DNA of 64,000 nt, taken from an uncultured Methanosarcinaceae archaeon. GTDB lineage: Archaea; Halobacteriota; Methanosarcinia; Methanosarcinales; Methanosarcinaceae. The position numbers and the translations under genes were made by a program. The stretch is from the NCBI GenBank assembly GCA_963727895.1, contig CAVSHT010000005.1, forward strand, positions 384,001-448,000, written 5' to 3'. A model generated the notes under the pieces. That model did not search any database. It was not told the DNA's origin and saw only the letters and a program-made list of their open reading frames with translations. Shown here piece by piece: positions 1 through 19,636 of this stretch (positions are counted from its first letter, which is position 1; every line of letters starts with the position of its first letter).

Positions 1-114
1 AATTTTAAGCCTCTAGAAGCATCGGTATATTTGGGTGGAACAATTAATCCACCCAATATCCTTAAACATCGCCTAGAGGTTGTATGTATCTTAAGGGGTC
101 TAGCGTTACTTGGG

Positions 115-495
115 TTATATTCTTGGTTTTATTCTTTGTATCGCAATGGTTCGATCATCAGAAACAGCGATGTCTAAATACCACAGCCAATTAACTGCCT
201 GACCAGTGCTAAAATTGTTATCATGAAAAATGTTTTCAAAAATTTTTTTCACGCCAAAATGTTGCTTACTATATTCTTTTCGCCACAATTCTGATTCATT
301 TGATTCTTCAGTTGGATATATGGCATATATCCCGCGATAGTTTTTTGAGCGGTGTCCCTCTTTCTCAGCGCCATCAGCACCAAGAGCGTTCATAGCCTTA
401 ATGACATCATATCTACTTACCCATATAGGCTCGTGTGTTTTCGTGCTTATGAGTATCTTTTTTACTCCATTCTCATACTTTTCTTTTATTCTCAT
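115..495 (-). CDS. Hypothetical protein, 126 aa
   Basis: ATG ORF with upstream GGGG RBS-like and TATA-like sequence; 9-bp stem TTGGGTGGA/TCCACCCAA downstream at about 21-55. Confidence 0.6.
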   Translation of the reverse strand: MRIKEKYENGVKKILISTKTHEPIWVSRYDVIKAMNALGADGAEKEGHRSKNYRGIYAIYPTEESNESELWRKEYSKQHFGVKKIFENIFHDNNFSTGQAVNWLWYLDIAVSDDRTIAIQRIKPRI

Positions 496-1093
496 TTTGT
501 GTGCCCCATTTAATAGATATGGGACTAAAACAGTATAAAGTTTATTTAAAATTAGAAAGAAATATATTAAAATAAAAATCAGATCAATAATTTTCTAGAT
601 CCATTGTCCAAATAGGGATATAAGTCAAGAATAGACATAAGAATTATTAGCCGCCGTTGAGGTAATAATATGACAATAGTAAATGGTAGCAAGATTTACC
701 GGTGGCGAACGAATGACAATATATAAAAGCAGTTCAAACTTTATGTATTTTTTTAAGTCGATATGGGTAACTGGCGAGCCGCTGAGGAGTATTATTATTT
801 CGGCCCGCCTATTGGGAAATGTTTCTTTATTTCACTTTTTTACAATTCCATATTATACAACTGAACCTATATAAATTTTTATACCGTTAAATGCGATAGC
901 GTGTGGCACCATAATATCCCTGTGAACTCTTCTTTTTTGTAGGCTTCTGTTGAGAAAGAAAATTTTAATTATTTTAATAATGTAAATCAATTTAAAACAT
1001 TTTGCTGATGCCGATTATTTAATAGTATATATACCGTACCGTAAAATAATTTATATATGTTGATGTCGTAATGATTACATTGGGAGTGGCAAT

Positions 1094-1291
1094 ATGAAAG
1101 GTCGTAAAAGAGTAACGATGAGATATGCACCTGACAGTCCTTGTATCAAAACAAGTCTAGTAATAACTCCAGAAGCACTTGAGATTCTTGATATTGAAAG
1201 AGGAAAAACATCAAGAAGTGAATTCATAGAGTCACTTATCATGGGAATATTCGTTGAACAATGTGAACTTGAAGGAATAAAAGTCGAATAA
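1094..1291 (+). CDS. Ribbon-helix-helix (CopG-like) DNA-binding protein
   Basis: 65 aa; KTSLVITPEALEILDIERGKTSRSEFIESLI fits the RHH pattern; GGGAGTG RBS; TTTATATA box upstream. Confidence 0.7.
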   Translation: MKGRKRVTMRYAPDSPCIKTSLVITPEALEILDIERGKTSRSEFIESLIMGIFVEQCELEGIKVE

Positions 1292-1435
1292 AAAATTATG
1301 GTGAAGAACACGTGACAGGGCCGTAAAACCTGTCACGATAGAACTAAGATAAACAATAAGTAATAGGGTTTCCTATTATAAATATCTTTTTCTGCCGTAA
1401 GTCGCGTGTTTTCACCTAAATAGAAGGTGAAGAAC

Positions 1436-1615
1436 ATGATAGACGAAGTTGTCAACAAATTAGAAAGAAAAGCGGTTCAAGAAATAATTGAGCCAACAAA
1501 AAGTAAAAAGTTCAAATTCCCGTCATTTGATCAAATTGCTAACGATATCATCGAGATCTACCGGAGAAACCCTTGGATCTTTAGTCCAAGGGAGGAACCG
1601 GCACTAAATACATAG
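1436..1615 (+). CDS. Small hypothetical protein, 59 aa
   Basis: AGGTGA RBS at 1425-1430 before ATG 1436. Confidence 0.55.
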   Translation: MIDEVVNKLERKAVQEIIEPTKSKKFKFPSFDQIANDIIEIYRRNPWIFSPREEPALNT

Positions 1616-1676
1616 TTTTGATTTATTATATACATCGAACCGAGTACCTAATTGGATTGAAAATAATGTATATAGT

Positions 1677-2704
1677 ATGCAAGTAACCGTAAAATCGAAA
1701 TTGGTTGTAACAGAAGAACAAAAACAAAAATTCTTACAGACCATGATAAGATTTAACGATGCTTGCAATTATGTTTCGCAAATTGCTTTTGAAAGCAAGA
1801 CATATAACAAATTCAAACTCCAAAAACTTGTGTATTATGATATACGAGAAAGATTTGAGCTGTCAGCTGATTTTTCACTGCTTCAGATTTATCAAAAACT
1901 AATCAGCTATCGATTCTAACACTTAATGGTAGAATCAAAGTTGGTATACAGTACAGTGATTACAGACAAATTGATACTAAAACGATGTTCTATAATCAAG
2001 CTGATCTGTTATATAAGAAAGGCGATTTCTATTTGATGTTAACAATAGATATGCCTGAACCAGAACCAATAGAGACAACTGGATTTCTAGGTGTTGATTT
2101 GGGGATTGTCAATTTAGCGACGACTTCAGATGGTAAAACATATTCTGGTGAGAAATGTACTGAAGTTCGAAAAAGATATGCTAAATTGAAAGCAGCTTTG
2201 CAATCAAAGGGAACATATTCTGCCAAGAAGCATTTGAAGAAAATGAGTGGTAGAGAACGTCACTTTAAGCAAAATACTAATCATTATATTTCTAAAGATA
2301 TCGTTGAGATAGCTAAAGACACAAATCGCTCTATTGTATTAGAAGAGTTAGTAGGCATTAGAGCGAGGACAACAGCTTCTAGAAAGCTTAACGATATTCT
2401 AGGTAAATGGGCATTTGGAGAATTAAGAAGCTATATCGAATATAAGGCTAAAGAAGTTGGAGTACCTATTGTAATAGTAGATCCACGTTACACATCACAA
2501 CAATGTTCAGTTTGTGGACATACTGAAAAAGATAATAGAAAGCATCAAGCCCATTTTGAATGTAAACATTGTGGGCATACTGAAAATGCTGATATTAATG
2601 CGGCAAAAAATATAGTTTCTAGGGCAGCCATCAACCTGCCTATTGTGTTCTACCTGTCTCAGGAATTTGAAACGCAAGCCATTGGGTCTTTAGCCCAATG
2701 GTAG
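1677..2704 (+). pseudogene. tnpB: IS200/IS605-family TnpB, split by an internal deletion/frameshift; no tnpA
   Basis: N-part has FNDACNY..LQKLVYYDIRERFELS; C-part has GVDLG, VLEEL, PRYTSQQCSVCG..CKHCG, NADINAAKNI; the parts are in different frames. Confidence 0.93.
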
Positions 2705-2708
2705 TTGA
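2679..2708 (+). other. IS200/IS605 right-end hairpin (3' end of omega/reRNA scaffold)
   Basis: CCATTGGG-tctttag-CCCAATGG stem at the tnpB stop, followed by TAGTTGA. Confidence 0.7.
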
Positions 2709-2812
2709 AAAAAGTGCCAAAAAGGTGCCAAAGAGCCCCATTCCTAAACTTTTTGAGGAATTTGAGCTAAATATCCTCGATAATATATTTTTCTCTTTTC
2801 GTGCAAACTATT

Positions 2813-2890
2813 CGAGACTTTAAATACTACGCCTCCTATTTTTATATACAGACAAAATATATTATTATTTAAATACTAATATAAAAATCA
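2813..2890 (+). promoter_or_regulatory. Repeated BRE/TATA + AT-rich leader motif, copy 1
   Basis: CGAG..TTTAAATA..TTTATATACAGACAAAATATATTATTATTTAAATACTAATATAAAAATCA. Confidence 0.75.
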
Positions 2891-2908
2891 AGAAGAGGAA
2901 GCACGAAA

Positions 2909-3031
2909 ATGAAAACATATCGGGCAAAATGTATGGGTAAAAACTGTAGAATGGACTCAATGATGAAAGCATCAGCTAAAAGGCACTGCTTTCACCTAAA
3001 GAGGCGGTATAATGGTCGTAAGGCAGACTAA
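2909..3031 (+). CDS. Small basic Cys-containing protein, 40 aa (MKTYRAKCMGKNCRM...)
   Basis: Hand translation; GAGGA RBS; directly after promoter copy 1; below the ORF-track cutoff. Confidence 0.55.
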   Translation: MKTYRAKCMGKNCRMDSMMKASAKRHCFHLKRRYNGRKAD

Positions 3032-3131
3032 ACGACTTCGCAAATATATCCCAGAAAAATCAAGGTATGTAAAATCAGCTAATGGGATAATGAGTCAAGC
3101 ATTCAAGCTGATAAAAGCAATGAGGCGGTGA
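3012..3131 (+). CDS. Small basic protein, 39 aa (MVVRQTKRLRKYIPEK...)
   Basis: Hand translation; GAGGCGGT RBS at 3001; overlaps the previous ORF; its end carries the same RBS for the next gene. Confidence 0.6.
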   Translation: MVVRQTKRLRKYIPEKSRYVKSANGIMSQAFKLIKAMRR

Positions 3132-3135
3132 TATT

Positions 3136-3447
3136 GTGGCAACGAAGTTCATCATGGGATATCCTGTAGATGTTAATGATGATCCAGAGGACGAATCTCT
3201 AATTCACAAAGTCAAGCAGTTCAAGCCTAGCAATATGATGGGTCACACCTTCACTAAGCCACCCACTAGACTGAATTTGATAGAAACCAGCGGCTTACCA
3301 AAGTCAAAAAACTTGAGTCAACGACGCGGGGATATATTAACGCAGTATGAGCCTCGTAGAAGGAGAAAGAAAGCTATTCCGGAGTTTGAATCGCAGTTTA
3401 TAGGGGATCAAAATCCCTATGGTGACGATATGGTACAATGGCGGTGA
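3136..3447 (+). CDS. Hypothetical protein with basic RRRRKK patch, 103 aa
   Basis: GAGGCGGTGA RBS before GTG; tightly packed with neighbours. Confidence 0.7.
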   Translation: MATKFIMGYPVDVNDDPEDESLIHKVKQFKPSNMMGHTFTKPPTRLNLIETSGLPKSKNLSQRRGDILTQYEPRRRRKKAIPEFESQFIGDQNPYGDDMVQWR

Positions 3448-3452
3448 ATTAA

Positions 3453-3743
3453 ATGATTGAAGGAATTAAAGTCCTTATAATGCGAATTATTGTATCATTA
3501 TGCATTGTCATTGGTGCCATGCCGCTATACAGGTTTATTTACGCATTTGCAGTAGGAACAAATCCAAGCTATTGCCTAGAAGCGATGTACACCGTTAATT
3601 CGAGCGTAAACATGATTTATCCTATTGCAATGATCGGAATTGCAATCGCGGTATTTCACATTTACTACCGCTGTGTTAGAAAGAGAGTTTATGAAAGCAC
3701 ATATTCGGAGACAGGATATTATGACCCCTACACGCGAACGTAA
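3453..3743 (+). CDS. Small two-TM hairpin membrane protein
   Basis: Two hydrophobic segments, NSS sequon in the loop, basic residues after TM2; GCGGTGA RBS. Confidence 0.75.
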   Translation: MIEGIKVLIMRIIVSLCIVIGAMPLYRFIYAFAVGTNPSYCLEAMYTVNSSVNMIYPIAMIGIAIAVFHIYYRCVRKRVYESTYSETGYYDPYTRT

Positions 3744-4035
3744 GCTTCTAAAGCGGCTAAATGATTATATCCATGAGTCTGAGCCTGCGTTGGTAGTCTG
3801 CTGGTTCGACATAGTAAAAACTTTGATATTCGTAGCCGCGATTTGGGTTTGTCTGTCCCCATTGCTTGATGCTTTTTATCTCTACGTGAATGCAAATTCA
3901 TCGGGCTTTTACGCAAATACAGACATTGAGTTCACTTCTAGTGTATACAATTTTTGGCGGTACATACCGATCATAACAGTTGGTTTTGTACTTTTCTATG
4001 CAATCAACTACTCGAACTGGAAGAGGAACGAGTAA
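3721..4035 (+). CDS. Small two-TM hairpin membrane protein
   Basis: ATG 3721 in frame with ORF 3640-4035; two TMs, NSS sequon, W..IPII motif. Confidence 0.75.
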   Translation: MTPTRERKLLKRLNDYIHESEPALVVCWFDIVKTLIFVAAIWVCLSPLLDAFYLYVNANSSGFYANTDIEFTSSVYNFWRYIPIITVGFVLFYAINYSNWKRNE

Positions 4036-4123
4036 TTTTCTTTCTTTTTTGCTGCTCACTATATCGAAAACACCAAAAAATATATGTGGCCGGCACTGTA
4101 TTAATTAATTGAGGTGATAGAAG

Positions 4124-4288
4124 ATGAGTGATGTTATACAGTGGTTTATAGGTGTTGGAACAAATATGCTTTGGATGATGGCAATCGTTTTTATAATGTT
4201 TACTGTCATGCTGATTATTTGTCATTTCTTACCAGAGCGACCAGCGGAGCCAGAACAAGCTGATGAGCAGCCAGAAGCCATAAACTAA
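4124..4288 (+). CDS. Single-TM small protein with acidic Pro/Glu tail, 54 aa
   Basis: Hand translation MSDVIQWFIG...PERPAEPEQADEQPEAIN; GAGGTGA RBS; T-rich terminator after. Confidence 0.7.
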   Translation: MSDVIQWFIGVGTNMLWMMAIVFIMFTVMLIICHFLPERPAEPEQADEQPEAIN

Positions 4289-4343
4289 TTCTCTTCTTTT
4301 CTTCTTTTTCTTTTTTTGCGTCTTCTTCTACCGATTACTAATT

Positions 4344-4423
4344 CGAGGGTATATATATTCGGCACCGAATTATTATATACAGACGAAATATAATATTATT
4401 TACATATTAATATAAAAAAATCA
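4344..4423 (+). promoter_or_regulatory. Repeated promoter/leader motif, copy 2
   Basis: CGAG..TATATATA..TTATATACAGACGAAATATAATATTATTTACATATTAATATAAAAAAATCA. Confidence 0.75.
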
Positions 4424-4440
4424 GTAAGAGGAGACTTAAA

Positions 4441-4554
4441 ATGAGTAAAATTGTAATCGGGATGACAGCCGACGTGGCTGAGACACTTGGCAATATAATC
4501 AATAGCGGGGTAAATTCAAGCTCGAACAACATGACGATGCATTCATCATTTTGA
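4441..4554 (+). CDS. Short ORF, 37 aa, possibly a truncated gene
   Basis: GAGGAG RBS and ATG right after promoter copy 2. Confidence 0.35.
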   Translation: MSKIVIGMTADVAETLGNIINSGVNSSSNNMTMHSSF

Positions 4555-4649
4555 ATGGTGCAAAAATCTATCGAAAGTATTCATCAATAACGTGGGCTGC
4601 GAAGAAGTATGATCGGCTCACTTCAATTTTTACAAAGGAGTGAGGGCAA

Positions 4650-6217
4650 ATGCATAAAAATATCCCAAGAATAATATTATTCACTTTACTATTTAGCTTG
4701 TTCACTGGTGCAGCTGGTGCATTGATAGCTATTCATTTGAAATATACGGATCTGGTAATTCTTCAGTTCGCGGTACAATCTATCAAACAATGAATTTTAC
4801 CAATGGTAGCTATTATACTATTGGTGCTTGGATGAAAACATCACCTGGTGCAGTAGGATTTTTAAAGGTGAATATCTTTAATAGCACTGGGAGTTATGAT
4901 TCCGCAGCAGCTGCGATGGGAACAGCTACAACAACGTGGACGTGGGTTTCGACTCGAGTCTTGGTCACAGTTCCACAAGCGCATGTTCGTATATTTCTAG
5001 CACTATATCAGACACAAAGAATGTATATTGTCACAGTTCCACAAGCGCATGTTCGTATATACGCAGATGCTACACCAAATGGTAACTTCTATGTAGATGG
5101 TATCATTGTATCACCTGATTCTTCATATTCAGCGAATGAATCAAATGATTCAACACACCTCTATCAGTCGTTTATATATACGCCTGCTACGGTCTATTCG
5201 AGTTCAGTATTTGCAACCAGTTTCGCGACTGAAACCCCTTCTAAGTATTCAAATAATGTTGCAACAGCAAAAATTGATGGTGCAACTGTTTCAGCTTGGA
5301 TTGCAAATAATCTAATATATGTCGATACCTCAGGTTTAACAGCCGGTGCACATACAATTCAGGTAACTGTAACACACGATGCACTTGTGTATGTAACTGC
5401 GGCTTTCAGCGCAAATACAACAAGTGGTCAGATACCACTCACTGTTGCTTTTACTGATACATCTACTGGCTCACCAACAAGCTGGGCTTGGAATTTCGGC
5501 GATGGCAGTACATCTACATCTCAAAATCCAACACACACATATAGCACATCTGGCACATATTCAGTCAGTTTGACTGCAACAAGTGCAAATGGTGCAGATA
5601 CCGAGACTAAAAATGCATATATCACAACGTCATCGACAATACCCACCGCAGCATTTTCGGGCTCGCCAATAATGGGTACTGCACCATTAACAGTGCAATT
5701 TACTGATAAAAGTGCTGGTGCGTCACCAATAACATATTTGTGGAATTTTGGTGACGGTAATACATCGACATATCAAAATCCATCACACATATATATCGCA
5801 AATGGCAACTACACGGTGAATTTGACTATCACAAATTCATACGGCACCAATAGTACATCTAAAACAGCATATATCGTCGTAGGCACATCTGACGCTGCAA
5901 ATAATACATTCAGAAACTATAGCCAATATAAAGATGTATTATTTCAGTCAAACATGTCAGCGTGGGACTTTGTGAAAAATACAAAGAATTTCTACGTAAG
6001 TTTCATGCCTGAATGGTTCTTCTGGCTGATCATATTGATCATCCCATATATTGGAATGTATAATAGACAGGGTGGTATTGAACTTGTTGCAGTGCTATAC
6101 TTGTTTACTGGTGGAATTGTTGCCCTTGTAATGCCAACTGTCATAGCACCCTTTGCAAAATGGTTCCTGATCTTGGGTGCCGGTGGCGTAATATATAAGA
6201 TGTTTGTTCCCGATTAA
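4650..6217 (+). pseudogene. Surface/adhesin protein: signal peptide, CBM-like beta-sandwich, two PKD domains, C-terminal 3-TM anchor; frame broken after the signal peptide
   Basis: ATG 4650 gives MHKNIPRIILFTLLFSLFTGAAGA out of frame with ORF 4790-6217; two WNFGDG PKD motifs; hydrophobic C-terminus. Confidence 0.8.
4964..5060 (+). repeat. Exact 31-bp direct repeat enclosing a unique 35-bp insert (66 bp net, frame preserved)
   Basis: GTCACAGTTCCACAAGCGCATGTTCGTATAT at 4964-4994 and 5030-5060; VTVPQAHVRI occurs twice in the protein. Confidence 0.95.
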
Positions 6218-6255
6218 GGCTATTACGCTTCCTCTTCTTCGTTTTCATCGACTTC

Positions 6256-6331
6256 CGAGGCTTTTTATACTTTGTAACCTTTTTATAAACATAAAATATA
6301 TATTAATATTTAAATATAAATATATAAATCA
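6256..6331 (+). promoter_or_regulatory. Repeated promoter/leader motif, copy 3
   Basis: CGAG..TTTTTATA..TTTATAAACATAAAATATATATTAATATTTAAATATAAATATATAAATCA. Confidence 0.75.
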
Positions 6332-6343
6332 GTGGTGAGAAGC

Positions 6344-6577
6344 ATGAACTCCTCTCATGACATGTTTAGCTTTGCCTTCGTGGCAATAATGATATTGGGC
6401 GGCATAGCAATGCTGTCTAGCGTTGTCTATATTGGTGGGCTGACTAATGCAACAGCTCCATTACATAGCACATTTACAACGATGACAGGGCTAATGAACA
6501 GCGGGATTGGGCTGGCAGCTATTGGTGTTATAGCATTGGGCGCTGGTATAGTGTTAAGAGTGTTCGATTATATTTGA
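6344..6577 (+). CDS. Small two-helix hydrophobic protein, candidate spindle-virus-type major capsid protein
   Basis: 77 aa; two Gly/Ala-rich hydrophobic helices linked by a loop with NAT sequon; first gene after promoter copy 3. CDS is solid, product is tentative. Confidence 0.55.
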   Translation: MNSSHDMFSFAFVAIMILGGIAMLSSVVYIGGLTNATAPLHSTFTTMTGLMNSGIGLAAIGVIALGAGIVLRVFDYI

Positions 6578-6588
6578 GGGATATTATA

Positions 6589-6909
6589 ATGGTGCTACCT
6601 ATAAATGCTTGGCTAATGATCGTGATAATAGCGATTGCTTGTTCAGCGATTTCAATTTTTATAAAAGACTGGCAAAATTATATAGACGCCATTTGTGGTG
6701 TGCTTGCAGCAATATTATGGCTTATTTCAGGGCTTGCTTGGCTGTCAGGTATTGCTACAGACAATGCAACTTATATAGCGCCTTATTTGTTTTGGGTGTT
6801 CTTAGCGATCGCAGTAATTCAGGCTATACTAGCAATTGTTAGAATTTTGGACATATTGACTGAGAGAAAGAAAGAACAGCACACGTCATTTGCACCTATT
6901 CATCTATAA
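6589..6909 (+). CDS. Small multi-pass (3 TM) membrane protein
   Basis: GAGGG RBS; three hydrophobic stretches; NAT sequon. Confidence 0.75.
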   Translation: MVLPINAWLMIVIIAIACSAISIFIKDWQNYIDAICGVLAAILWLISGLAWLSGIATDNATYIAPYLFWVFLAIAVIQAILAIVRILDILTERKKEQHTSFAPIHL

Positions 6910-7053
6910 GAAGGCAGTTTTAGTCCTCTATTATGTTATTTTTGGACTTCCTATTTTACCTAATACATTTACATCAGGCATAGACAATCGCTTAAAATAT
7001 CCCCTCTACGAAGGCTAGATAAGTCTGTATTTTGGCACTTTGAGTCGATTTTT

Positions 7054-7132
7054 CGAGGTTATTTATATCTTGAAGCGCTATTTCTATTTACAATAAAAAA
7101 TCTATTAATATTTACTAATTAATATATAAGTA
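7054..7132 (+). promoter_or_regulatory. Repeated promoter/leader motif, copy 4
   Basis: CGAG..TTTATAT..CTATTTCTATTTACAATAAAAAATCTATTAATATTTACTAATTAATATATAAGTA. Confidence 0.7.
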
Positions 7133-7160
7133 CACCACAAATTGAGGCTGTGAGCAAAAT

Positions 7161-7553
7161 ATGCCACGAGATGTGCTTAATATAAGCAAGTTAACTGATA
7201 AAGAACAGCAGATATTAAACAATGTACTCGAAGACAAATATGATCAAAAAGGATTAATGACGTACGGAGACTCAAATACTCGATGGTTCGAGAACAATAT
7301 ATGGCTTAACAAATTATATGTTTCATTAATAATTGTCATGATCAGCGCCGTGATTGATAGTATAATATCTCCGCATGCAATGAGTGATATTTATACACTG
7401 TTTGCTACTGGCTTTCCTGCAATTGATGATCACCTACGCGTTTTTGGAAATACAGGTTTAGCAATAGCGATTTTAATCGATATAATTACAGCATACATCA
7501 TAATATCGCTACTAGACGTATTTAAATTAGTCAAAAATCATTTTAGTAAGTAA
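7161..7553 (+). CDS. Membrane protein with soluble N-terminus and two TMs, 130 aa
   Basis: ORF track; hydrophobic segments in the C-terminal half. Confidence 0.75.
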   Translation: MPRDVLNISKLTDKEQQILNNVLEDKYDQKGLMTYGDSNTRWFENNIWLNKLYVSLIIVMISAVIDSIISPHAMSDIYTLFATGFPAIDDHLRVFGNTGLAIAILIDIITAYIIISLLDVFKLVKNHFSK

Positions 7554-7627
7554 TATATTAATACTCACTTTTTCTTTTCACATGTAGTTTACTTCTAACG
7601 GCAAATAGAGAAACCGTAATCGATATT

Positions 7628-7706
7628 CGAACCTTTTTATATATTGAATCCCTATTTCTATTTACAGAAAAAATATATTACTATTTATATACAATTATAA
7701 AAGTCA
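7628..7706 (+). promoter_or_regulatory. Repeated promoter/leader motif, copy 5
   Basis: CGAA..TTTATATA..CTATTTCTATTTACAGAAAAAATATATTACTATTTATATACAATTATAAAAGTCA. Confidence 0.7.
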
Positions 7707-7873
7707 AATATAACTGGCAGGTAGTATCGAATCGGAAAGGCTTAAACAACCTTCGTGGTAGCCACGTATACCTCGCAATTTTATCGCAGGCTGGATGGTT
7801 GGAATATTTAGAACTTCAGATACGATATCATCTCAAAAAGTCCACAACACATTGCAACAAATGAGGTGAAATT

Positions 7874-8395
7874 TTGGCCAGAGGGATCTACCACAAGACA
7901 AATGTTTTAAAGTTTAGGATTATGCACGCGGTATTCAATGCAGGTGAACCACTAACATGTAGAGAAATAGCATCCCGCCTTGATGTACCGCTTGTAAATG
8001 TAAGCGCCATAATGAATCATTATCAAAAGCAACCTGAGCATAAGTATTTTCGGTGACTAAAGCCAATAAAAGGCAAAGCATATCGATATAAACTCACAAA
8101 AAGCGGTGCGAAATACCTTGCAAAATATTGTTGGCGGCTGCATGAGGGCTTCAGTCTATCACTATATAAAGTAAAAAAGATGCCAAAGCGAGATAAAGTC
8201 ATAGCTGAGCGCAATGCTGAAGCTGAGTTGAGAGATGCTATATTTGAAAAAACAGGTGTTGAAATGCCTAGAAAGCCAAAACCAACAATAAAAGAACTAT
8301 TAAACTTTGATCCCGCTGAGTTAACCGATTACATGGGCATTACAAAAATGGGAGCGCTTGAAATGGGAATTACAGGATTCGACTTTGAGGTTTAA
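7874..8395 (+). pseudogene. Winged-helix DNA-binding protein with one in-frame TGA at 8054-8056
   Basis: ORFs 7874-8056 and 8180-8395 share a frame; PLTCREIASRLDVPLVNVSAIM HTH, then YFR*LKPIKGKAYRYKLTKSG wing; GAGGTGA RBS. Confidence 0.8.
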
Positions 8396-8682
8396 TTCTC
8401 ATTCTTTAACCTCATACCACAATCAAAATAAACGTATTGATTTGGGATATTTGATAGTTGAGCCAATTCCGACCTTTAATTTTTGTCTCAATTTTAAATA
8501 TTTACACTCCATGTAGCTGCCTCCACGAAAACTGCCTTATATTATATTCTTGAGCGGCTTTGAGCGGTCCGTTCGCTGAATCTCGAACCGGTAGGCATTT
8601 TTGGACTTTTTGTCGATTTTATTAGGCTAAACGTAATTAGCTGCTCTGTATTTGTAGACTTATTTCGGAATCACAGTAATTA

Positions 8683-8853
8683 TTAATGACACTCTAAACA
8701 CTGGTTAACATTTTGTATATCTATCTCAGTAGCCTCACCTCTAAGCTTTCTATAGATCCCACAATAACGCTTATCACAAGCTTTTTTACATGTATATGAA
8801 TTATTTCGATATGCAGAACATCTTAAAGCGTATTCGCATTTGATATCAAACAT
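8683..8853 (-). CDS. Small Cys-rich protein, 56 aa, putative metal-binding
   Basis: Hand translation MFDIKCEYALRCSAYRNNSYTCKKACDKRYCGIYRKL...CLECH; GGGG RBS-like upstream. Confidence 0.55.
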   Translation of the reverse strand: MFDIKCEYALRCSAYRNNSYTCKKACDKRYCGIYRKLRGEATEIDIQNVNQCLECH

Positions 8854-9116
8854 ATCCAGCCCCTTTTAAACTTCAGTTGTTTCCACTTCATTTTCGAGCC
8901 TACCCCAAAGCTCAAAATCACTTCTCTAATGCTCAAATATTAAAAAAGAAAACAGCACAACTGGCTAATGTAGGTACTTAAACACCAGCCAGTTAGGATT
9001 TATTTTAGTTATTTAACTTTCAAGTATAGTTATACGTTTTTATTTCTAGTATCAATATTCAGGGTGTAAGTATACTAAAACATCAGTAACTTAGGGTTAT
9101 TGTCTTTCCATATGCT

Positions 9117-9545
9117 TCATCGGTAGTATTTATTATAATTGTTATAAAAGTTGTTATAATTGCCATACCAGCTGTGATAATTGCCGTACCAGCTGTTATA
9201 TTTTAACAACCACGCCATGTACATTTTATACCAATTATTGTAATATTTGTCGTGCTTCTTGTGGTTCCACTCATTCTTTTGGCGGTTCCAATTATTCCTT
9301 TGTTGGTCCCAATTATTCTTTTGGCGATTCCAATCATTCTTTTGGCGATCCCAATTATTCCTTTGTTGGTTCCAATTATTTCTATCCCCAATATTCTTTT
9401 GCTGGTTCAAATTATTTCTATCCCCAGTATTCTTCCCACCATTATTATATGCATTATTCGGAGCTGCACTTACTGCTGCAACTGTCACTGACATTACAAA
9501 ACAAAATGCCAGCAAAATTCCTAGTATCTTTCTCATTTTCAGCAT
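9117..9545 (-). CDS. Secreted Asn/Trp/Tyr-rich heptad-repeat protein
   Basis: Signal peptide MRKILGILLAFCFVMSVTVAAVSA; 21-nt repeats; GGGGGT RBS. Confidence 0.8.
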   Translation of the reverse strand: MLKMRKILGILLAFCFVMSVTVAAVSAAPNNAYNNGGKNTGDRNNLNQQKNIGDRNNWNQQRNNWDRQKNDWNRQKNNWDQQRNNWNRQKNEWNHKKHDKYYNNWYKMYMAWLLKYNSWYGNYHSWYGNYNNFYNNYNKYYR

Positions 9546-9889
9546 TTTATTTACCCCATATATTTGCTGTTTAGATAGCCTTCCTTTATTGTCTTAAGTA
9601 TCTCGCTGATTATTCACAGCTTGACAATCCTAAAATAAGCCAGCTAAAATATAAACATACTTATAAATAATAATTTATAAAAGGGGACTAATTATATAAA
9701 TAATGGTTTCTAAAGGATTAAATATGAAAATATCCTTTTATAAGTGATATAACTATGAAACCACGTCCCAAATGAATTAATTTCTTAAAAAAAGGTTTAG
9801 AAATTTTTATTTATCCATAACACAAATAACATTCTGTTGTGAAAATGTCCAAATAAGTATGTGAATGTATGATGAACAAAAGTCAAAAT

Positions 9890-10062
9890 ATCCAAGGAAA
9901 ATATATGGATATTAAAGAAATGGTCCAACTAGTTGATTAATATTGAAATATTCAGAAGACTGCTGATAAGATAGGAAACGAAAATTGAGAATTACCTTGC
10001 TATGCTTCATTTAGGATGTGCATGTATAACATTCAGGGCAGCAGGACTTTTCGGAAGGCTCT
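9890..10062 (+). mobile_element. IS5-family 3' remnant related to the element at 20343-21215
   Basis: GAAAATTGAGAATTACCTTGCTATGCT...GCAGCAGGACTTTTCGGA-AGGCTCT matches 21133-21215. Confidence 0.85.
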
Positions 10063-10182
10063 TAATGAGTATGATTATTGTACCTATGTATCGATTCCAC
10101 AAAAAACCTCTCTATTTTATATTTGCGAGAGGCGCCGTTCAGATCGTTCCGCGGTTCTGACAGTGTAACATAAGTTCTGTAA

Positions 10183-12315
10183 GTGCGACAAGATGTTATG
10201 TCATAAATTGCCTTGTGCTACTCTTTCCATTTAGAGTAATCCTATTATGAGGTGCATCAGCAGTAATGCAGTTGTACTAAGCTCGTAAGACAATGTGGAA
10301 AAGCCTGAAAGTCTAACTTGGGTCATCTGCTAGGGTAAAAATGCTATGAAGAAACATATGTTGAATCATTGTACGGGTCGTGACTCATGACAAGCGAAAC
10401 TAGACTGATACGCTTGAACCAAACGGTATGAAAGCAGGCTGCGATGGTGTTACAGACGTCGCAGAAAATGGACATACGACTTTCCGGTCTATAGATGGCT
10501 TCTAAAGCATTTACATTATTTGTGACATAAAACTTGGTAAGCCCTATATGCTCCTTTTAATAAAAAAAAAAAGAGGTAGAGACTCTGTGAAGGGAATTAA
10601 TTGCATAGAGGGTAGAGGATTCAGTAAAAAGCGAATGTCAATCTGTAATGGAATTGGATAGGGGTTCAAACTTTGCCTTGATCCGAAAGGGTGCAGACTT
10701 ACTGATTGGTGTTCTATTGTATGAAAGGAGGCAAACTTCTGAATGTAAGTATTTCAACGATATCCCTTCAGGATAAGAAGCTTACAGACGCTCATCTCTC
10801 CCAGAAATGGAAAAGTATCAACTGGCATCAAGTAGAGAAGAGTGTTAATAAGTTGCAAACCCGAATTACAAAAGCAGTCTTACAAAACAAATGGAACCTT
10901 GTCAAGAGATTACAGTATTTACTGACTCATTCCTATTCCGCCAAACTTTTGGCAGTAAGAAGAGTTACTCAAAATAAAGGAAAAAGGACATCTGGAATCG
11001 ATGGTGAGAAATGGTTAACACCTGACTCCAAAATGAAAGCTGTTCTTAGTCTCACTGGTAAAAGATACAAAGCTAAACCCCTTAAAAGAGTCTTCATCAA
11101 TAAACCTGGTAAGAAGAAGAAACGTCCTTTAGGTATCCCTACAATGTATGACAGAGCTATGCAGTCTTTATACGCATTAGCTCTTGAACCCATAGCTGAA
11201 ACTATGTCTGACATCAGGTCCTTTGGATTTAGAAAACACCGAAGTACTAAGGATGCATGTCAGCAAATCTTTCTATGTTTAAGCAAGAAAAATTCAGCCC
11301 AATGGATCTTAGAAGGCGATATTAAAGGATGTTTTGATAATATAAATCATCAGTGGTTGCTGGCTAATATTCCAATGGAAAAGTCAATACTAACTCAATT
11401 TCTCAAAGCAGGTTTTATTTACAAACGTCATCTGAATCCAACAAAAGCAGGCACGCCACAAGGCGGGATGATCTCCCCTATTTTGGCTAATATGACATTG
11501 GACGGTCATCGAGAAGTTACTTTTGGCTGAATACCCAAAAAGAAAAGAATTCAACCAAGGTTAACTTCATCAGATACTGCGATGATTTCATAGTAACTGC
11601 TAATTCAGAAGAAACTGCCAGAGAAATCAAGGATATGATTGCTGTTTTTCTTAAAGAAAGAGGTCTTGAACTATCTGATGATAAAACTCTTATCACAAAT
11701 ATTAATGAAGGCTTTGACTTTCTGGGCTGGAATTTCCGCAAGTACAAAGGCAAGCTTCTGATCAAACCTTCCAAGAAGTCCATTAAAAGATTCACTGAAA
11801 CAATTAGTCAAACCTTAAGAAAAGGGATAGCATGGTCCCAAGATAACTTAATTTCCAAACTAAATCCAATAATAAGAGGTTGGACTAACTATCATAATTC
11901 AGTGGTCTCTTCGGAAACATTCCAGACACTTGACCATCGAATCTGGGAAATGTTATGGAGATGGGCTAAAAGAAGACATCCAAACAAATCCAAAGATTGG
12001 ATTGTCAACAAATATTGGAAGCAAAGTACTACACGAAAATGGAACTTCAGAACAGAAAGAAACAGTTTATTGCTTTTATCCAAAACCAGAATCTATAGAC
12101 ACATTCCTTTAAAACTGCAAATGAATCCATTTCTTGATATCGACTACTTCCATGAACGTCATAATAAATTAAGTTCCCGGAAAAGTCAATCCGTTTGAAA
12201 AAAAACTGCTGCCTGATACAGAAAGGGTTATAGAACGCTTGAGCCGGATGAAGGGAAACTTTCAAGTCCGGTTCTTAGAAGAGGGAGAGCGAGTAATCGC
12301 TCTTTCTTATTCAAC
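10183..12315 (+). mobile_element. Group II intron (probably chloroplast-like class)
   Basis: 5' GTGCG; domain V GAGCCGGATGAAGGGAAACTTTCAAGTCCGGTTC at 12241-12274; domain VI hairpin ending in AC; boundaries confirmed by the empty MITE copy. Confidence 0.95.
10706..12198 (+). pseudogene. ltrA: Group II intron reverse transcriptase/maturase, frameshifted at about 11505-11550, no endonuclease domain
   Basis: RPLGIPT, GDIKGCFDNI, GTPQGG, RYCDDF, GFDFLG, X-domain LNPIIRGWTNY; two frames. Confidence 0.93.
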
Positions 12316-12675
12316 AATTACAAATTTTAAAAAGTTTTTGAGCCATAAATTCCATATCCGAAGATCAATTTTCCCATAATACACAAAAACTTGACTTCAA
12401 ATTTACAGCAAATTTGCGACACTGCCGCGGTTCTGGAAAACGGCGATGATTTTTGAAGATTTTGAGGATATTTTGAGCGTTTTCCAGCGATATTTATGTA
12501 TATCCAAGATCCTGATATCATGTTGTGGAGGCTCTACGAAAGCTCCAGTAACAAGCGTATCCTCGATAAGTGCCGAATTTTCATCTTGGTTCTGAGCTAT
12601 AAAGAACTATGGTTTAACTATATTATATTTAGATCCAACCAGATATATATATTTGATCAGACCCTATATACTTAC

Positions 12676-13137
12676 ATGTCAACAATTATCATAAATCGAA
12701 CCAAATACATCAATGTAAACATCCTTCCTAAAATAGATTCACTGGCTCAAGAGCGTTCTTGCACAAGATCTGATGTACTAAGAGACGTATTCTATTCAAG
12801 TTTTAAATATCCAAAACAAGAAAGAACACCTGAGCAAATTGAAGCCGACCATGAACTTGAAGCATATGATAAGCGAGAGAGAGGACGCAAGTATATAGTT
12901 GTGGCAGTTGAAGATGCTTTCCATGAAGCACTTTTTAGATATTGCATCACAAGGCGTGGTTGCAATAATAAAGCAATCGAGTATATCCTAGCTAAATATC
13001 TTCACATACCAGTAGAAGACAAAGGTTTTAGAGACGATTTTATTCGGCTGCTTTGTATTTATAGCGTCGCACAGGACAAAGGCACTGGCAAGGGCATTGT
13101 GCGGGTTAAGAAAGTATCTACTATAACTTCTTTATGA
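12676..13137 (+). CDS. Putative tandem ribbon-helix-helix protein
   Basis: ATG 12676 after a TATA-rich tract; IDSLAQERSCTRSDVLRD and YIVVAVEDAFHEALFRYC..NKAIEYIL patterns. Confidence 0.55.
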   Translation: MSTIIINRTKYINVNILPKIDSLAQERSCTRSDVLRDVFYSSFKYPKQERTPEQIEADHELEAYDKRERGRKYIVVAVEDAFHEALFRYCITRRGCNNKAIEYILAKYLHIPVEDKGFRDDFIRLLCIYSVAQDKGTGKGIVRVKKVSTITSL

Positions 13138-13666
13138 AGCCTCTAGTCAAGCTGGCTGTTGAGCGAGGAGTAAAATACCCAACATCTTAAAAATGTTTTG
13201 ATAAATAAACTCGTTAACTTTAATCATTTTGACGCAGCTTCAAAAAACAATTGACTCCATAAAACTTATTATACAAATAAACTCAATAAGCGGCAGGGTT
13301 TATCAAGAACAAAACCACTCAGAATTTACAGAGACAAACCTGGACCTTAGAAGCATTGGACTCTCTCGTAAGGTCAACTCAGAAAAGTAATTTCCAGAAT
13401 TAAGTGCCAGAAAGTTAGCTGAAAATTGTCGGATATCTTAGAGCTTTTCAGATAGTATCAATCGAAAGGGATTGTTTTATATCGTTGAACGATATTAGGA
13501 CTGTCATATATTCTTCTTTAATTCCTTTAATCAAGATATATTGACGATAAAGATAGCATACAATTTTATATAAATCAACCATTTGATTCAACCGAAACTG
13601 ATTCGGAATAAATTTCAAGCCGAAGTAATTCGGAACAAATTCTAGTGTGCGAACACAGGTGATAGA

Positions 13667-15574
13667 ATGCAGTTATTGCTCATTCACTCTGACTATATTG
13701 AATATGAAACCAAAAAACAAACTCCAGTTGCTGAAAAAATCGAAGAATCCTTGAAGTCTGGTAGGCTTGAAGAGGCGCTCACCGCTTTTATGGCTGTGGA
13801 AAGTGTAGATGAGGCAAATCCTGAGGAAACTATAGAAAAGACGATTTCTGAAATTGAAAAGGTAGCTTCCCAGGTCAAAACCAACCGTATAATGCTCTAT
13901 CCTTATGCTCATTTAAGTTCTGACCTTTCTTCTCCTAAAGTTGCAGTACAAGTACTGAAAGGAATAGAAACTGCCCTCTCAGGTAAATATGAAGTCAAAC
14001 GTGCTCCTTTTGGATGGTATAAGGCTTTTAGTATAAGCTGTAAGGGACATCCGCTTTCTGAACTTTCAAGGAGCATACGTCCTGAAGGAACTTCAAAGGC
14101 AGCAGGCAAAATAGAAACGTGTGGAGAAAAAGTAGAGGTTGTTTCCGAAGCTCTCAAAGCCGAAGATACTGCAAAGTCTTACTGGCGTATCCTCACACCT
14201 GATGGAGAACTTCATGAAATTGAGAATTTTGACCTTGCACCGTATCCCAAGCTTCAGCAGTTTGTAGACTATGAGATTTCCAAAAGCAGAGCTGTTGAAC
14301 GTGCTCCACCGCATGTGGAACTTATGCGGAGGCTTGAGCTTGCAGATTACGAACCAGGGTCGGACTCAGGAAACATGCGTTATTACCCAAAAGGAAGACT
14401 TGTAAAGGCTCTCCTTGAAAATTATGTTCTTGATGTCGCAACTGATTTTGGGGCAATGGAAGTTGAAACCCCTATCATGTACGACATGAACCATCCGACT
14501 CTAAAGAAATATCTGGATAGATTCCCTGCAAGACAGTATTCTATAGAATCTGACAAACGGCAGATGTTTTTACGTTTTGCAGCCTGCTTTGGGCAGTTCC
14601 TTATGAACCACGACATGACAATTTCTTATAAGAATCTGCCTCTTCGGATGATAGAAATGACTCGCTACAGTTTCAGGAGGGAACAGCGGGGAGAACTTGT
14701 AGGTTTGAGAAGGCTTCGAGCTTTTACCATGCCTGATATGCACAGTCTGTGTGAGGATATGAACCAGGCTGTGGACCAGTTCAAAAAACAGTATGACCTC
14801 TGCATTAATGTGCTTGAAAATATAGGAATTCATATTAAAGATTACGAGGTTGCTATTCGTTTTACCAGGGACTTTTACGAGTCGAATAAAGAACTTGTAG
14901 TCAACATGGCAAAGACCGTGAACAAACCTGTGCTTGTGGAGATGTGGGACACCCGTTTCTTCTACTTTGTACTCAAGTTCGAATTTAATTTTGTAGATGC
15001 CCTTGAAAAAGCCAGTGCACTTTCCACGGTTCAGATTGATGTCGAAAACGCCGAAAGATATGATATTTCTTATGTAAATCCTGACGGCAAACTGGAACGC
15101 CCAACTGTGCTTCACTGTTCTCCAAGCGGAGCAATTGAACGCTGTATTTATGCCCTTCTCGAAAAAGCTGCAATGGAAACCGAAGAAGGAAAGGTTCCAA
15201 TGCTGCCAGTGTGGCTTTCCCCTACTCAGGTCAGAATTGTGCCAATATCAGAAAAACACATCGCCTTTGCTGAAGAAGTTTCACAGAAACTGGACTGCAG
15301 AGTTGATATCGATGACCGCGATCTTTCGATAGGAAAGAAAGTAAGAGAAGCAGGAAGAGAATGGGTTCCTTACGTGGTGGTTATTGGAGATAAAGAAATC
15401 GAAGATGGTACCATCAATGTAACCATCAGAGAAGAATCTGAGCAGAATAAGCCGAAAAAAGTTCAAATCACTCCTGAAGAGCTTAATACTCGCGTTAGAA
15501 GTGAGATAACAGGAAAACCGTATAGAAAATTGCCACTCGCAAAATACCTTTCTATAAGGCCAAAGTTCTTGTAA
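13667..15574 (+). CDS. thrS: Threonyl-tRNA synthetase, archaeal type
   Basis: N-terminal archaeal editing domain (LLIHSD, YPYAHLS, APFGWYK), [17 protein letters not shown], anticodon-binding domain. Confidence 0.98.
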
Positions 15575-16003
15575 ACCTTTCAGCCTTCAAAAATATTTCA
15601 AATAAGAGTTGTTGAAAACCGCCAGAAGAAACGAAATTCATTATCTACCTGTTTCTTCTGGTTTTTTACATAACAGATAACTTTTTAGCATAACATATAT
15701 ATTGACGTAATTCTTATTATTGAAAAAAGATTCCTTTTCAATAAAAGCAATTCTAGGTTTTTTCTTATCCGCTTCTGGATGAAAAGATCCTGATTTATGT
15801 ATTTTGGCATATAAAGTTTTTACTAAATGAAATTTTTATTAATCGTTTGTAAATTATGGGGATTCACTTCTTATTAAATTTACAATTACATAAAGCATTT
15901 TCTTTTATATGGCTATACCAGTTACCCAGAAACCTCTTGTAAGGCACTTTCTGGTTTTGATATATCTAAATTTTACAGTGATAAGTATAAGGACAGCGTA
16001 TTA

Positions 16004-18190: not shown

Positions 18191-18380
18191 TTTCGTAAAA
18201 AATGAATTTTGGGAGATTAGTTCTCTCTCATTTTATATTTGTTTTTAATATTTAATTAACTTTAACTCATTTTTTAAAGAAGAATCTGAAAAGAACCTCA
18301 CGTTTTCTCAGAAAATGATAATTAGGTGAGAAACAAAAATGTGTAAACTAGACTTTTATACGTATAAGCAATCCTATAAA

Positions 18381-19415: not shown

Positions 19416-19636
19416 ATAACTCTAATACTTAATATAAATTAGTTAATTGTTTAAAAATTTTATGTGTTAAATCTCAAAACCATTTTATCAATAAAAATTT
19501 AAAGGATTGAAATTCTTAATTGAAAGACAGTAAAAAGTTATAACAAAATTAAGTAGAAATGTATGGAGCAATCTATTATTATTCAAACATGTATCTTCAC
19601 TACTAAACTAGTATTCAAAAAAGTAGGATTTTATTT

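Follow-up and report, generated by a model that had tools for sequence, protein, structure and literature searches.

A decayed integrated element of Methanosarcina and its relatives in three genera: a conserved membrane-protein block that may encode a virus-like particle

The Methanosarcinales are major methane producers. Few of their viruses appear in the literature cited here: MetSV, MetMV, which is unconfirmed, and spindle-shaped viruses known from metagenomes. One of the latter, a Methanosarcina virus with two copies of the capsid gene, is classified as Eurekaviridae (PMC12451623). Pleolipoviridae and Thalassapleoviridae are small, integrative, and non-lytic, with a virion that is a membrane vesicle bearing a few small proteins with several transmembrane (TM) segments and one anchored spike; their proviruses carry short attachment (att) repeats beside the integrase, and pleolipovirus-like proviruses are reported for Methanomassiliicoccales and Methanonatronarchaeia, and not for Methanosarcinales (PMC10919331). 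In type IV secretion systems, as well as in the Ced and Ted systems, a VirB4-like ATPase and a VirB6-like channel are the conserved partners of VirB2-like pilins (PMC9905601). Among archaeal 'dark matter' islands, integrated elements of small size have been noted that encode a primase-helicase but no capsid protein (PMC4158269). Here we describe a block of small genes at positions 2909-8395 of a 64,000-nucleotide (nt) stretch of DNA from an uncultured Methanosarcinaceae archaeon (C5:384001-448000 of a 19-contig, 3.67-Mb assembly). This whole stretch is called the window, and positions given without a contig refer to it. The block is part of a site-specific integrative mobile element inserted by a tyrosine recombinase and does not consist of core genes. 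Our best reading, unproven and standing just short of an even chance, is that the products of the block form a virus-like particle, extracellular and derived from the membrane, in which the element is carried.

Self-comparison of C5:360000-402000 delimits an insertion of 29.3 kilobases (kb; C5:367972-397313) with an exact 20-nt direct repeat at both ends. The left copy of the repeat (C5:367972-367991), 16 kb to the left of the window, falls within the 3' end of a transporter gene of the AI-2E family and is followed, 10 nt further on, by the gene of an intact tyrosine integrase of 422 amino acids (aa) with a C-terminal zinc ribbon (C5:368001-369269, Pfam E-value 3.5e-19). The right copy, attR (13294-13313; C5:397294-397313), is found upstream of a threonyl-tRNA synthetase gene. 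When the left and right flanks were searched separately in the 58 other genomes of the genus, the empty site was found in at least 13, with both matches on one contig and overlapping by 16-20 nt, as in G001:C183, where they extend over 2458-3551 and 3534-5239. Since the flanks abut with this overlap in relatives, the 29.3 kb between the repeats is an insertion. The DNA of the module has no match in 40 relatives, PKD repeats excepted; the genes are not syntenic core genes, which the preliminary description had named as a finding that would refute it. The preliminary description had seen neither an integrase nor a replication protein in the window and had pointed to the sequence on its left; both are present there inside the element, the integrase next to the att repeat and, further on, a helicase of the DUF927 family (681 aa, C5:372504-374549, E-value 6.6e-34). 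The same region holds several zinc-ribbon open reading frames (ORFs) and genes for surface proteins (YNCE beta-propellers, a Big_9 protein, and PKD).

The ORFs of the block are regarded as real genes and not as chance ORFs, because 2909, 3453, 3721, 4790, 6344, 6574, and 7874/8180 have homologues elsewhere. No homologue was found in the compared loci for the six small ORFs 3012, 3136, 4124, 4441, 4650, and 7161, which is what can be said for a reading of the block as ordinary chromosomal genes or chance ORFs outside any mobile element. That reading is extremely improbable: besides the att repeats, the integrase, the empty site, and the absence of the module from relatives, the seven conserved genes are found only in similar integrated elements, and for the block as a whole it was rejected on the att repeats and the empty sites.

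All genes of the block lie on the + strand. The preliminary description had counted about 12 co-oriented, coupled genes; we find about 13, small and encoding for the most part membrane proteins, with GGAGG/GGTGA-like motifs 5-12 nt upstream of most of the ORFs. Three small basic proteins come first, as had been described. The first (2909-3031, 40 aa, isoelectric point (pI) 10.5) is conserved in the family and shares 53% identity over 36 aa with the ORF next after the gene of hairpin A (see below) in the metagenome contig L063 (E-value 2e-11); the second (3012-3131, 39 aa, pI 11.7) is likewise very basic, and the third (3136-3447, 103 aa, pI 9.3) is soluble and has an RRRRKK stretch. Two family-conserved two-helix membrane proteins follow, encoded by 3453-3743 (96 aa) and by 3721-4035 (104 aa), the latter overlapping the end of the former. 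Their homologues, 30-39% and 31-38% identical, respectively, occur in the genomes G024 (two copies), G017, and G202, always with that of 3453 directly 5' of that of 3721. The next ORF (4124-4288, 54 aa) has a single TM segment and an acidic tail. The ORF list and hydropathy give two further small ORFs, 4441-4554 and 4650-4793, the second of which is signal-peptide-like and may be a remnant of the lost 5' part of the PKD gene. The latter (4790-6217) encodes an N-terminally truncated, membrane-anchored protein of 475 aa (Pfam PKD_4, E-value 6.7e-39) with two PKD domains and a hydrophobic C terminus at residues 401-469, in agreement with the anchored PKD adhesin described before.

The second half of the block starts with 6344-6577, which encodes a two-helix protein of 77 aa called here hairpin A. 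Each of the three two-helix proteins (3453, 3721, and 6344) has an N-X-S/T sequon between its helices, and hydropathy bears out the other small TM proteins that had been listed with them. The gene at 6574-6909 encodes a three-TM protein of 111 aa, recognized in other genomes by profile matches and synteny, and genes of this type stand directly 3' of a larger, variable gene in five compared elements. The 130-aa protein of 7161-7553, which has a soluble N terminus and two hydrophobic helices, has no homologue in the compared genomes; window positions 6820-7809 are covered by one soil-metagenome contig. The last gene (7874-8395) is that of a winged helix-turn-helix (wHTH) regulator with 174 codons and an in-frame TGA at 8054-8056, 62% identical over 175 aa to an intact paralogue. 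The preliminary description had listed a wHTH gene; the helix-turn-helix matches of 7874-8056 are sub-threshold, and 7874-8056 and 8180-8395 are one gene. Apart from these matches, Pfam recognizes only the PKD domains within the block, and the PHROG matches of its proteins are weak and uninformative, including two weak families of unknown function on 6574.

Relatives of the element were identified by tblastn and by all-against-all BLAST of the surrounding DNA. Seven genes (2909, 3453, 3721, 6344, 6574, the PKD gene, and that of the wHTH protein) are found again in integrated elements of Methanosarcina, Methanococcoides, and Methanolobus, as well as on metagenome contigs, with syntenic homologues in G024 (two copies), G017, G202, G257, G231, and G233, as well as in L060, L061, L063, and L066, the last four being metagenome contigs. 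Among 284 genomes of the order, a profile of hairpin A has a clear match in G015 and weaker, full-length ones in G024, G202, G203, G233, and G257. The profile of 6574 matches 12 of the 284, all belonging to one family (six Methanosarcina, this genome included, four Methanolobus, one Methanococcoides, and one of another genus). Homologues of the wHTH gene are present in the elements of G024, G058, G202, G203, G231, G233, and G257. A profile search of genome contigs returned only the three loci from which the query had been built. Judged by these homologies, the element is a member of a family spread patchily over three genera of Methanosarcinaceae. The literature searched contains no description of this family; the 2023 compendium of methanogen viruses by Medvedeva and the supplements of the cited papers were outside that scope, and a prior description there is possible.

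Members of the family share an integrase, a DUF927 or D5-type replication protein, small ribbon-helix-helix (RHH), zinc-ribbon, and wHTH regulators, and a block of membrane-protein genes on one strand. The fullest arrangement is seen in Methanosarcina G024, which has two fuller copies that are 60-80% identical to each other. There, the genes follow on one strand in the order hairpin B, hairpin A, p83, p342, a protein of 1362/1388 aa, p66, the basic p64, the homologues of 3453 and 3721, p58, a PKD protein of 1031 aa with a signal peptide, and the homologue of 6574, with the wHTH gene further on. The gene order differs in the other elements. The compact element of G202 (Methanococcoides sp. FTZ1) comprises an integrase, DUF927, RHH genes, homologues of 6574, hairpin A, 3453, and 3721, hairpin B, and the wHTH gene. 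G257 (Methanolobus vulcani PL-12/M) and two other Methanolobus genomes have an integrase, a replication protein, zinc-ribbon proteins, hairpins B and A, the homologue of 6574, which in Methanolobus sits behind a protein of 231-273 aa, and the wHTH gene. In G017 there are an integrase, a DUF927 protein 32% identical to that of the window element, a DUF6908-like gene, the homologue of 6574, a giant protein of 2186 aa, and the 3453/3721 pair. The metagenome contigs L060 and L061 show the order hairpin B, hairpin A, giant protein (1973 aa), PKD protein (582 aa), and 6574, and their left part mirrors the window element, with a DUF6908-like gene, which is common to G017, L060/L061, and the window element, and a homologue of the ORF that crosses the left edge of the window. 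That ORF (C5:383604-384005, 134 aa) has no Pfam match, and its homologue, in the same place in L060 (6457-6870), adjoins the DUF6908 gene on the opposite strand.

Hairpin A is, by its distribution, the most widely conserved protein of the element family and its signature. Only four close homologues were found in 5.8 billion proteins, all metagenomic, 77 aa long, and 82-87% identical, whereas a profile searched against 1.84 billion cluster representatives yields 75 at E-values up to 1e-3, 20 of these up to 1e-10. An alignment of 54 rows starts with a variable leader, often including E-x-A-x-G, which is absent from the window hairpin A and its nearest relatives. Helix 1 is followed by a loop of ~20 residues, often with a sequon and F/Y, then by S-G-Y-x-L at the start of helix 2 and by a short C-terminal tail. 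The E-x-A-x-G motif of many relatives could be a processing site. In the AlphaFold2 model of 6344 built on this alignment (pLDDT 72), the helices comprise residues 3-30 and 41-73. Ten relatives looked up in their clusters carry the label 'hypothetical protein' and, in two cases, the automatic label 'small-conductance mechanosensitive channel' only. Hairpins A and B are probably paralogues, because their families align over 80 columns (hhalign 79%, E-value 1.6e-5); two hairpin A genes stand in tandem in locus L065. For the three hairpins of the window, the profiles do not show such a relation: the 6344 family scores 0.5% against that of 3453 and 2.4% against that of 3721 in hhalign, and the relation between 3453 and 3721 is at most faint (22%).

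One variant of this protein is particularly informative for the orientation of the hairpin. A 406-aa protein of L060 (8453-9673) consists of a signal peptide, a PKD domain, a glycosidase of the GH46 (chitosanase) family (E-value 2.5e-37), and a hairpin A-like C terminus, which aligns with the 41 C-terminal residues of the profile of hairpin A (hhalign 92.5%, E-value 5e-7). Several remote matches of the profile are, similarly, long proteins ending in the same C-terminal segment. This arrangement puts the loop of the hairpin on the outer face of the membrane. The L060 protein is a candidate for an envelope-degrading enzyme carried on the hairpin assembly, and the shared segment suggests that minor subunits bearing an enzyme or an adhesin join the assembly via a common helix. 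The C-terminal anchor of the PKD protein in the window was also considered as hairpin A-like, and this was dropped at an hhalign value of 0.2%.

The giant proteins of the relatives (1362-2186 aa) are basic, contain long stretches of low complexity, abound in Ala, Ser, Thr, and Lys, and have no cysteine, no TM segment, and no signal peptide. No conserved Walker A motif is seen in them, and no match was found in Pfam, PHROG, the PDB sequences, or the ESM-Atlas. We read the giant protein as structural and not enzymatic.

A TATA-rich repeat of ~50-70 nt is present in five copies in the module, each ahead of a gene or a group of genes and on the + strand. Copy 1 (2835-2891), defined by self-comparison and alignment A1, is 5' of 2909; copy 2 (4373-4418, 91% identical to copy 1) is 5' of 4441; copy 3 (6280-6331, 85% identical to copy 1 over 52 nt) lies directly 5' of 6344; copy 4 (7062-7114) is 5' of 7161; and copy 5 (7636-7707) is 5' of the wHTH gene. 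L063 and L060 share with these copies a core of 26-27 nt; in L060, it precedes the gene of the giant protein by ~300 nt. We infer that the repeats are promoters on which the wHTH protein of the element acts.

Put together, these elements suggest how a particle could be made. The five copies of the promoter would fire the module together under the control of the wHTH regulator. Hairpin A, with hairpin B, would be the main building block, its glycosylated loop turned outward, and minor subunits would carry PKD or glycosidase domains, either on the same C-terminal helix or on an anchor of their own, for attachment and passage through the cell envelope. The DNA would be packaged along with the giant basic protein and the small basic ones, and the particle would be a virion like those of spindle-shaped or pleomorphic viruses of archaea. 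We favor a particle because a polymer-like major subunit occurs together with minor subunits headed by an adhesin or a glycosidase and with basic proteins that have no export signal, because no motor for secretion or for a pilus was found, and because the layout is similar to those of His1 and SSV1. The last but one point concerns ATPases. Among the larger ORFs scanned in this element, G202, G257, G024, L059, L060, and L066, a set that does not cover every small ORF, there is none of the VirB4/CedB-like, FtsK/HerA, or PilB type, and the ATPases that Pfam does find are DUF927 and D5-type helicases and an OLD-family nuclease; this fits viruses that bud or are extruded without a packaging motor. 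Carried one step further, and held tentatively, at clearly less than even weight, the elements would be proviruses of a new non-lytic virus family of Methanosarcinaceae (Methanosarcina, Methanococcoides, and Methanolobus), with hairpins A and B as a new family of two-helix capsid or envelope proteins either unrelated to the capsid proteins of SSV1 and His1 or related to them beyond present detection. We can speculate that in such viruses the PKD adhesins and the GH46 domain on the assembly helix would bind and cut the methanochondroitin or surface-layer envelope.

A number of results weigh against a particle, and in particular against one built from a known capsid protein. The preliminary description had proposed, from the architecture, a likeness of the hairpins to SSV1 VP1/VP3 and the His1 capsid protein and had named 6344 the best candidate for the major capsid protein. 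This gene does have the architecture of spindle-virus capsid proteins (two hydrophobic helices, a short loop, ~70-90 residues), which unrelated hairpins share as well, and it is the signature protein of the family; the likeness itself is not recovered by alignment. While SSV1 VP1, VP3, and His1 VP21, used as controls, match their own Pfam families at E-values of 2.4e-19, 1.8e-38, and 1.5e-37, respectively, none of the window proteins matches VP1_VP3 (PF06281) or His1_capsid (PF25665) at E-values up to 0.1, and none of 11 members of hairpin A and four of hairpin B does so up to 1. In hhalign the hairpins score 0.2-17% against VP1, VP3, and VP21, the best alignment covering helix 1 of VP1 only; the three templates were single sequences, and a very remote relation is still possible. 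Members of the spindle lineage are nevertheless detectable in Methanosarcina, as a spindle-virus contig with a protein-primed polymerase was recognized by its profile match to the SSV1 capsid protein (94.9%; PMC9796341), and hairpin A is not detected in this way. Searches with the model of hairpin A, a check that had been proposed with Foldseek, return only generic helical hairpins, hundreds of unrelated ones fitting equally well, among which no capsid protein or pilin stands out: the best E-values of Foldseek are 2.8 against the PDB and 1.0 against BFVD, and VIA-align against 48,161 chains gives Z-scores up to 9.3, to spectrin, Esx proteins, and designed hairpins. More generally, searches in Pfam and PHROG and with hhalign link none of the proteins of the module, or of its relatives, to a known virion protein. 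In IMG/VR no relative was found with queries 6332, 7161, and 3136 and with profiles A4 (the 6574 family) and A5, and tblastn searches of 50,697 phage and virus records with 6344 and 3453 as queries yielded no match or a single one by chance (E-value 0.6). Neither a particle nor an excised circle nor a spacer match has been seen. Six metagenome runs, compared as contigs, contain at most 0.21 of the sampled words; those of four were mapped to window positions 1-20000, where they show relatives of parts of the module and of the group II intron described below, and none of them spans the junction of an excised circle or an unoccupied site. The arrays of clustered regularly interspaced short palindromic repeats (CRISPR) of this genome (C11, 9 and 121 spacers), which the preliminary description had suggested comparing, have no spacer matching the element or 39 related loci (451,788 bases), the comparison giving only chance matches of 10-16 nt, and no short spacer-like matches to the module occur in 40 relatives.

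Part of this counterweight comes from pilins, which the preliminary description had itself named, as VirB2-like proteins, among the findings that would speak against a virion module. Hairpin A would then be a VirB2/CedA1-like or leader-processed pilin for DNA transfer or adhesion, the PKD proteins would form the tip or serve as minor subunits, and processing of the leader would fall to an A24-type peptidase. TrbC/VirB2 (PF04956) is the sole recurrent Pfam signal of hairpin A among the matches listed. It scores 14.6 bits for 6332-6577 and 16.1 bits for the G202 homologue, against a cut-off of 27.9 bits, and is found, always below threshold, in five of the 11 members (best E-value 0.013) and in seven of the 75 remote representatives (best E-value 0.0039), the Pfam families listed for the latter being the first 25 of 79. 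Many members have the E-x-A-x-G leader before helix 1, and ORFs similar to Peptidase_A24, also sub-threshold, are located beside the module in G202 (99 aa, L041 10619-10918, E-value 3e-5, 24.8 bits against a cut-off of 26.5) and in L066 (7650-8075, 141 aa, E-value 0.0038), and not in the window. Archaeal VirB2-like pilins may, moreover, be too diverged to be recognized between systems (PMC9905601). However, the window hairpin A and its closest relatives lack the leader, the TrbC scores could be explained by a Gly/Ala-rich two-helix composition, and a 350-residue PKD-GH46 part ahead of helix 2 is hard to fit into the wall of a VirB2-type pilus. The partners of such a pilin are also missing: in addition to the VirB4/CedB-like ATPase, no PilB/PilC-type assembly gene is present among the scanned ORFs, and no VirB6/CedA-like protein with 6-7 TM segments was found in the window, G024, G017, G202, or G257, where by crude hydropathy the module proteins have at most 3-4. 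A pilus module is a quite unlikely explanation, although a recurrent pilin signal below threshold does exist.

Another explanation is an integrative plasmid whose module for the cell surface or membrane makes no particle and benefits host and element jointly, by adhesion, by remodelling the envelope, by excluding competitors, or by loading ordinary membrane vesicles. On this view the hairpins are scaffolds in the membrane or resemble immunity proteins, and enzymes of the surface are seen in the PKD, GH46, and beta-helix proteins. One ORF of G257, read by eye from its sequence only, is ParA-like, which is a plasmid trait and also belongs among the points against a particle. Surface-protein genes (YNCE beta-propellers, Big_9, and PKD) fill much of the window element, and the lack of a virion hallmark in any library and of relatives in IMG/VR also counts for a plasmid of this kind. 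Helicases of the DUF927 type are found in plasmids, phages, and satellites alike; the present one matches replicons of both kinds at 21-28% identity and does not discriminate between them. On the other hand, what is conserved as a core in the three genera is the membrane block, and the surface cargo varies, the paralogous or tandem hairpins and the enzymes on the C-terminal helix of the hairpin point to a polymeric assembly, and the conserved giant basic protein, which has no export signal, has no obvious role in surface remodelling. We regard a plasmid module as unlikely, if worth keeping in view, and retain the particle as the preferred reading.

Whatever the complete elements make, the window copy is, by comparison with them, a decayed remnant, in accord with the decayed module of the preliminary description. 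Its wHTH gene, cut and inactivated by the TGA at 8054-8056, is collinear with the intact 175-aa paralogue P0001 (C5:450206-450733), 58 kb away. Relative to its homologues of 582 and 1031 aa, the PKD gene has lost its 5' third, which encodes residues 1 to 320-350 with the signal peptide and DUF2341, so that its product aligns only to residues 320-582 and 350-1031, respectively. Exact 31-nt copies at 4964-4994 and 5030-5060 mark an in-frame tandem duplication of 66 nt (22 codons) inside the truncated gene. Hairpin B and the giant gene are absent from the window module, which is rearranged and incomplete relative to the fuller copies. Just 5' of it, at the position that the hairpin and giant genes occupy in fuller relatives, lies a broken tnpB gene of the IS200/IS605 type (1677-2704, + strand) in two ORFs, 1677-1919 and 1985-2704, the second of which was identified by Pfam (Cas12f1-like_TNB, E-value 5e-26; OrfB_IS605, E-value 1.4e-9). 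An intact tnpB adjoins the homologue of 6574 in L066 (5890-7134). On the other side, a group II intron (10133-12480, + strand; Pfam RVT_N, RVT_1, and GIIM) has its reverse transcriptase (10706-11530) and maturase (11635-12198) parts split and in different frames. Metagenome contigs join position 10132 to 12481, and their depth over the intron is several-fold above that of the surroundings, as expected for an intron present in several copies. With a nonsense codon in the regulator, the export signal of the PKD protein lost, hairpin B and the giant gene missing, and an insertion sequence and a group II intron inserted, the window copy can probably no longer build a particle.

The remaining features of the element lie on both sides of the block. 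A small RHH-like ORF (1094-1291, + strand; Pfam RHH_1, E-value 0.06, sub-threshold) matches in tblastn (E-value 0.003) an RHH-like ORF beside the DUF927 gene of a Methanococcoides element. The ORF 9117-9545, on the - strand, encodes a secreted Asn/Trp-rich repeat protein of 142 aa with paralogues found by tblastn on C4 (93%) and at C5:451.5 kb (77%), which adjoin two more copies of the wHTH gene in the genome, one being the intact paralogue and the other a 97% copy of the 8180 piece. The gene at the end of the element (12496-13137, + strand) encodes 213 aa without a Pfam match and is 38% identical to a paralogue on C4. These copies belong to two remnants of related elements: on C5 (positions 1-3870 of C5:448001-462000 and the right end of the window), a PKD protein that runs off the right edge of the window is followed by the intact 175-aa wHTH gene and then by the 9117-9545 homologue, and C4:259001-278000 includes, at its positions 7391-9520, the 97% copy of 8180-8395, the 93% copy of the 9117-9545 protein, and the 38% paralogue of 12496-13137. 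To the left of the window, a stretch of 638 nt is duplicated within the element at 98.6% identity (C5:376203-376840 and 380545-381181), inside two genes of YNCE-type beta-propellers, the second of which is broken into two ORFs. The CRISPR locus (C11:159846-169499) consists of two adjacent arrays with related 37-nt repeats, 10 and 122 in number, and one of its spacers has an exact 20-nt match at C4:46103-46122. A 35-nt match at 89% in G005 was rejected as a spacer, being outside any repeat array.

The window copy is itself of lesser interest. The analysis defines a family of integrated elements across three genera, with a membrane-protein block that is conserved and entirely without annotation and with a signature hairpin for which 1.84 billion proteins yield about 75 cluster representatives. 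Named strains carry at least two of the elements (Methanococcoides sp. FTZ1 and Methanolobus vulcani PL-12/M), which makes the choice between particle, vesicle, and pilus directly testable. If the block makes a particle, it would add a new capsid-protein family and a case of minor capsid subunits decorated with enzymes; if it does not, it would still show a small replicon remodelling the surface of a methanogen.

Comparison of the family with the described systems reveals partial similarities to each. Hairpin A shares with the pilins of VirB2-type, Ced, and Ted systems the two-helix hairpin of 70-90 residues; TrbC matches recur, all below the cut-off of the family, and some members have a leader. 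It differs from these pilins in its partners, as the scanned ORFs include neither a VirB4-like ATPase nor a VirB6-like channel. Halorubrum lacusprofundi has a plasmid, pR1SE, that is spread by specialised vesicles carrying membrane proteins of its own encoding, and this without classical capsid or conjugation genes; it is haloarchaeal and larger than the window element, and whatever likeness there is would be functional. With pleolipovirus-like elements, the family has in common integration with att repeats, an integrase, small multi-TM proteins, and one anchored protein. The anchored protein, however, consists here of PKD domains, with DUF2341 and CBM-like domains in the longer homologues, whereas a VP4-like fusogen defines the pleolipovirus group.

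Spindle-shaped viruses of the SSV1/His1 kind differ from the family in sequence, as the hairpins have no detectable relation to VP1_VP3 or His1_capsid, and the giant proteins of 1362-2186 aa, as well as the 3453, 3721, and 6574 proteins, have no alignable counterpart in them. The replication protein is DUF927 instead of a DnaA-like protein or a protein-primed PolB, and integration of the SSV type splits the integrase, while that of the window element is intact beside attL. The similarity to these viruses is one of layout. Both have a small, hydrophobic helix-loop-helix protein with sequons in the loop and with paralogues side by side, as are hairpins A and B in the relatives. Both combine a small two-TM capsid protein, or its candidate here, with several proteins of 2-3 TM segments, a C-terminally anchored protein of ~500-800 aa, and a basic protein such as VP2, and both have, in addition to small basic proteins, an integrase and RHH, zinc-ribbon, and wHTH regulators, and lack a packaging ATPase, here among the ORFs scanned.

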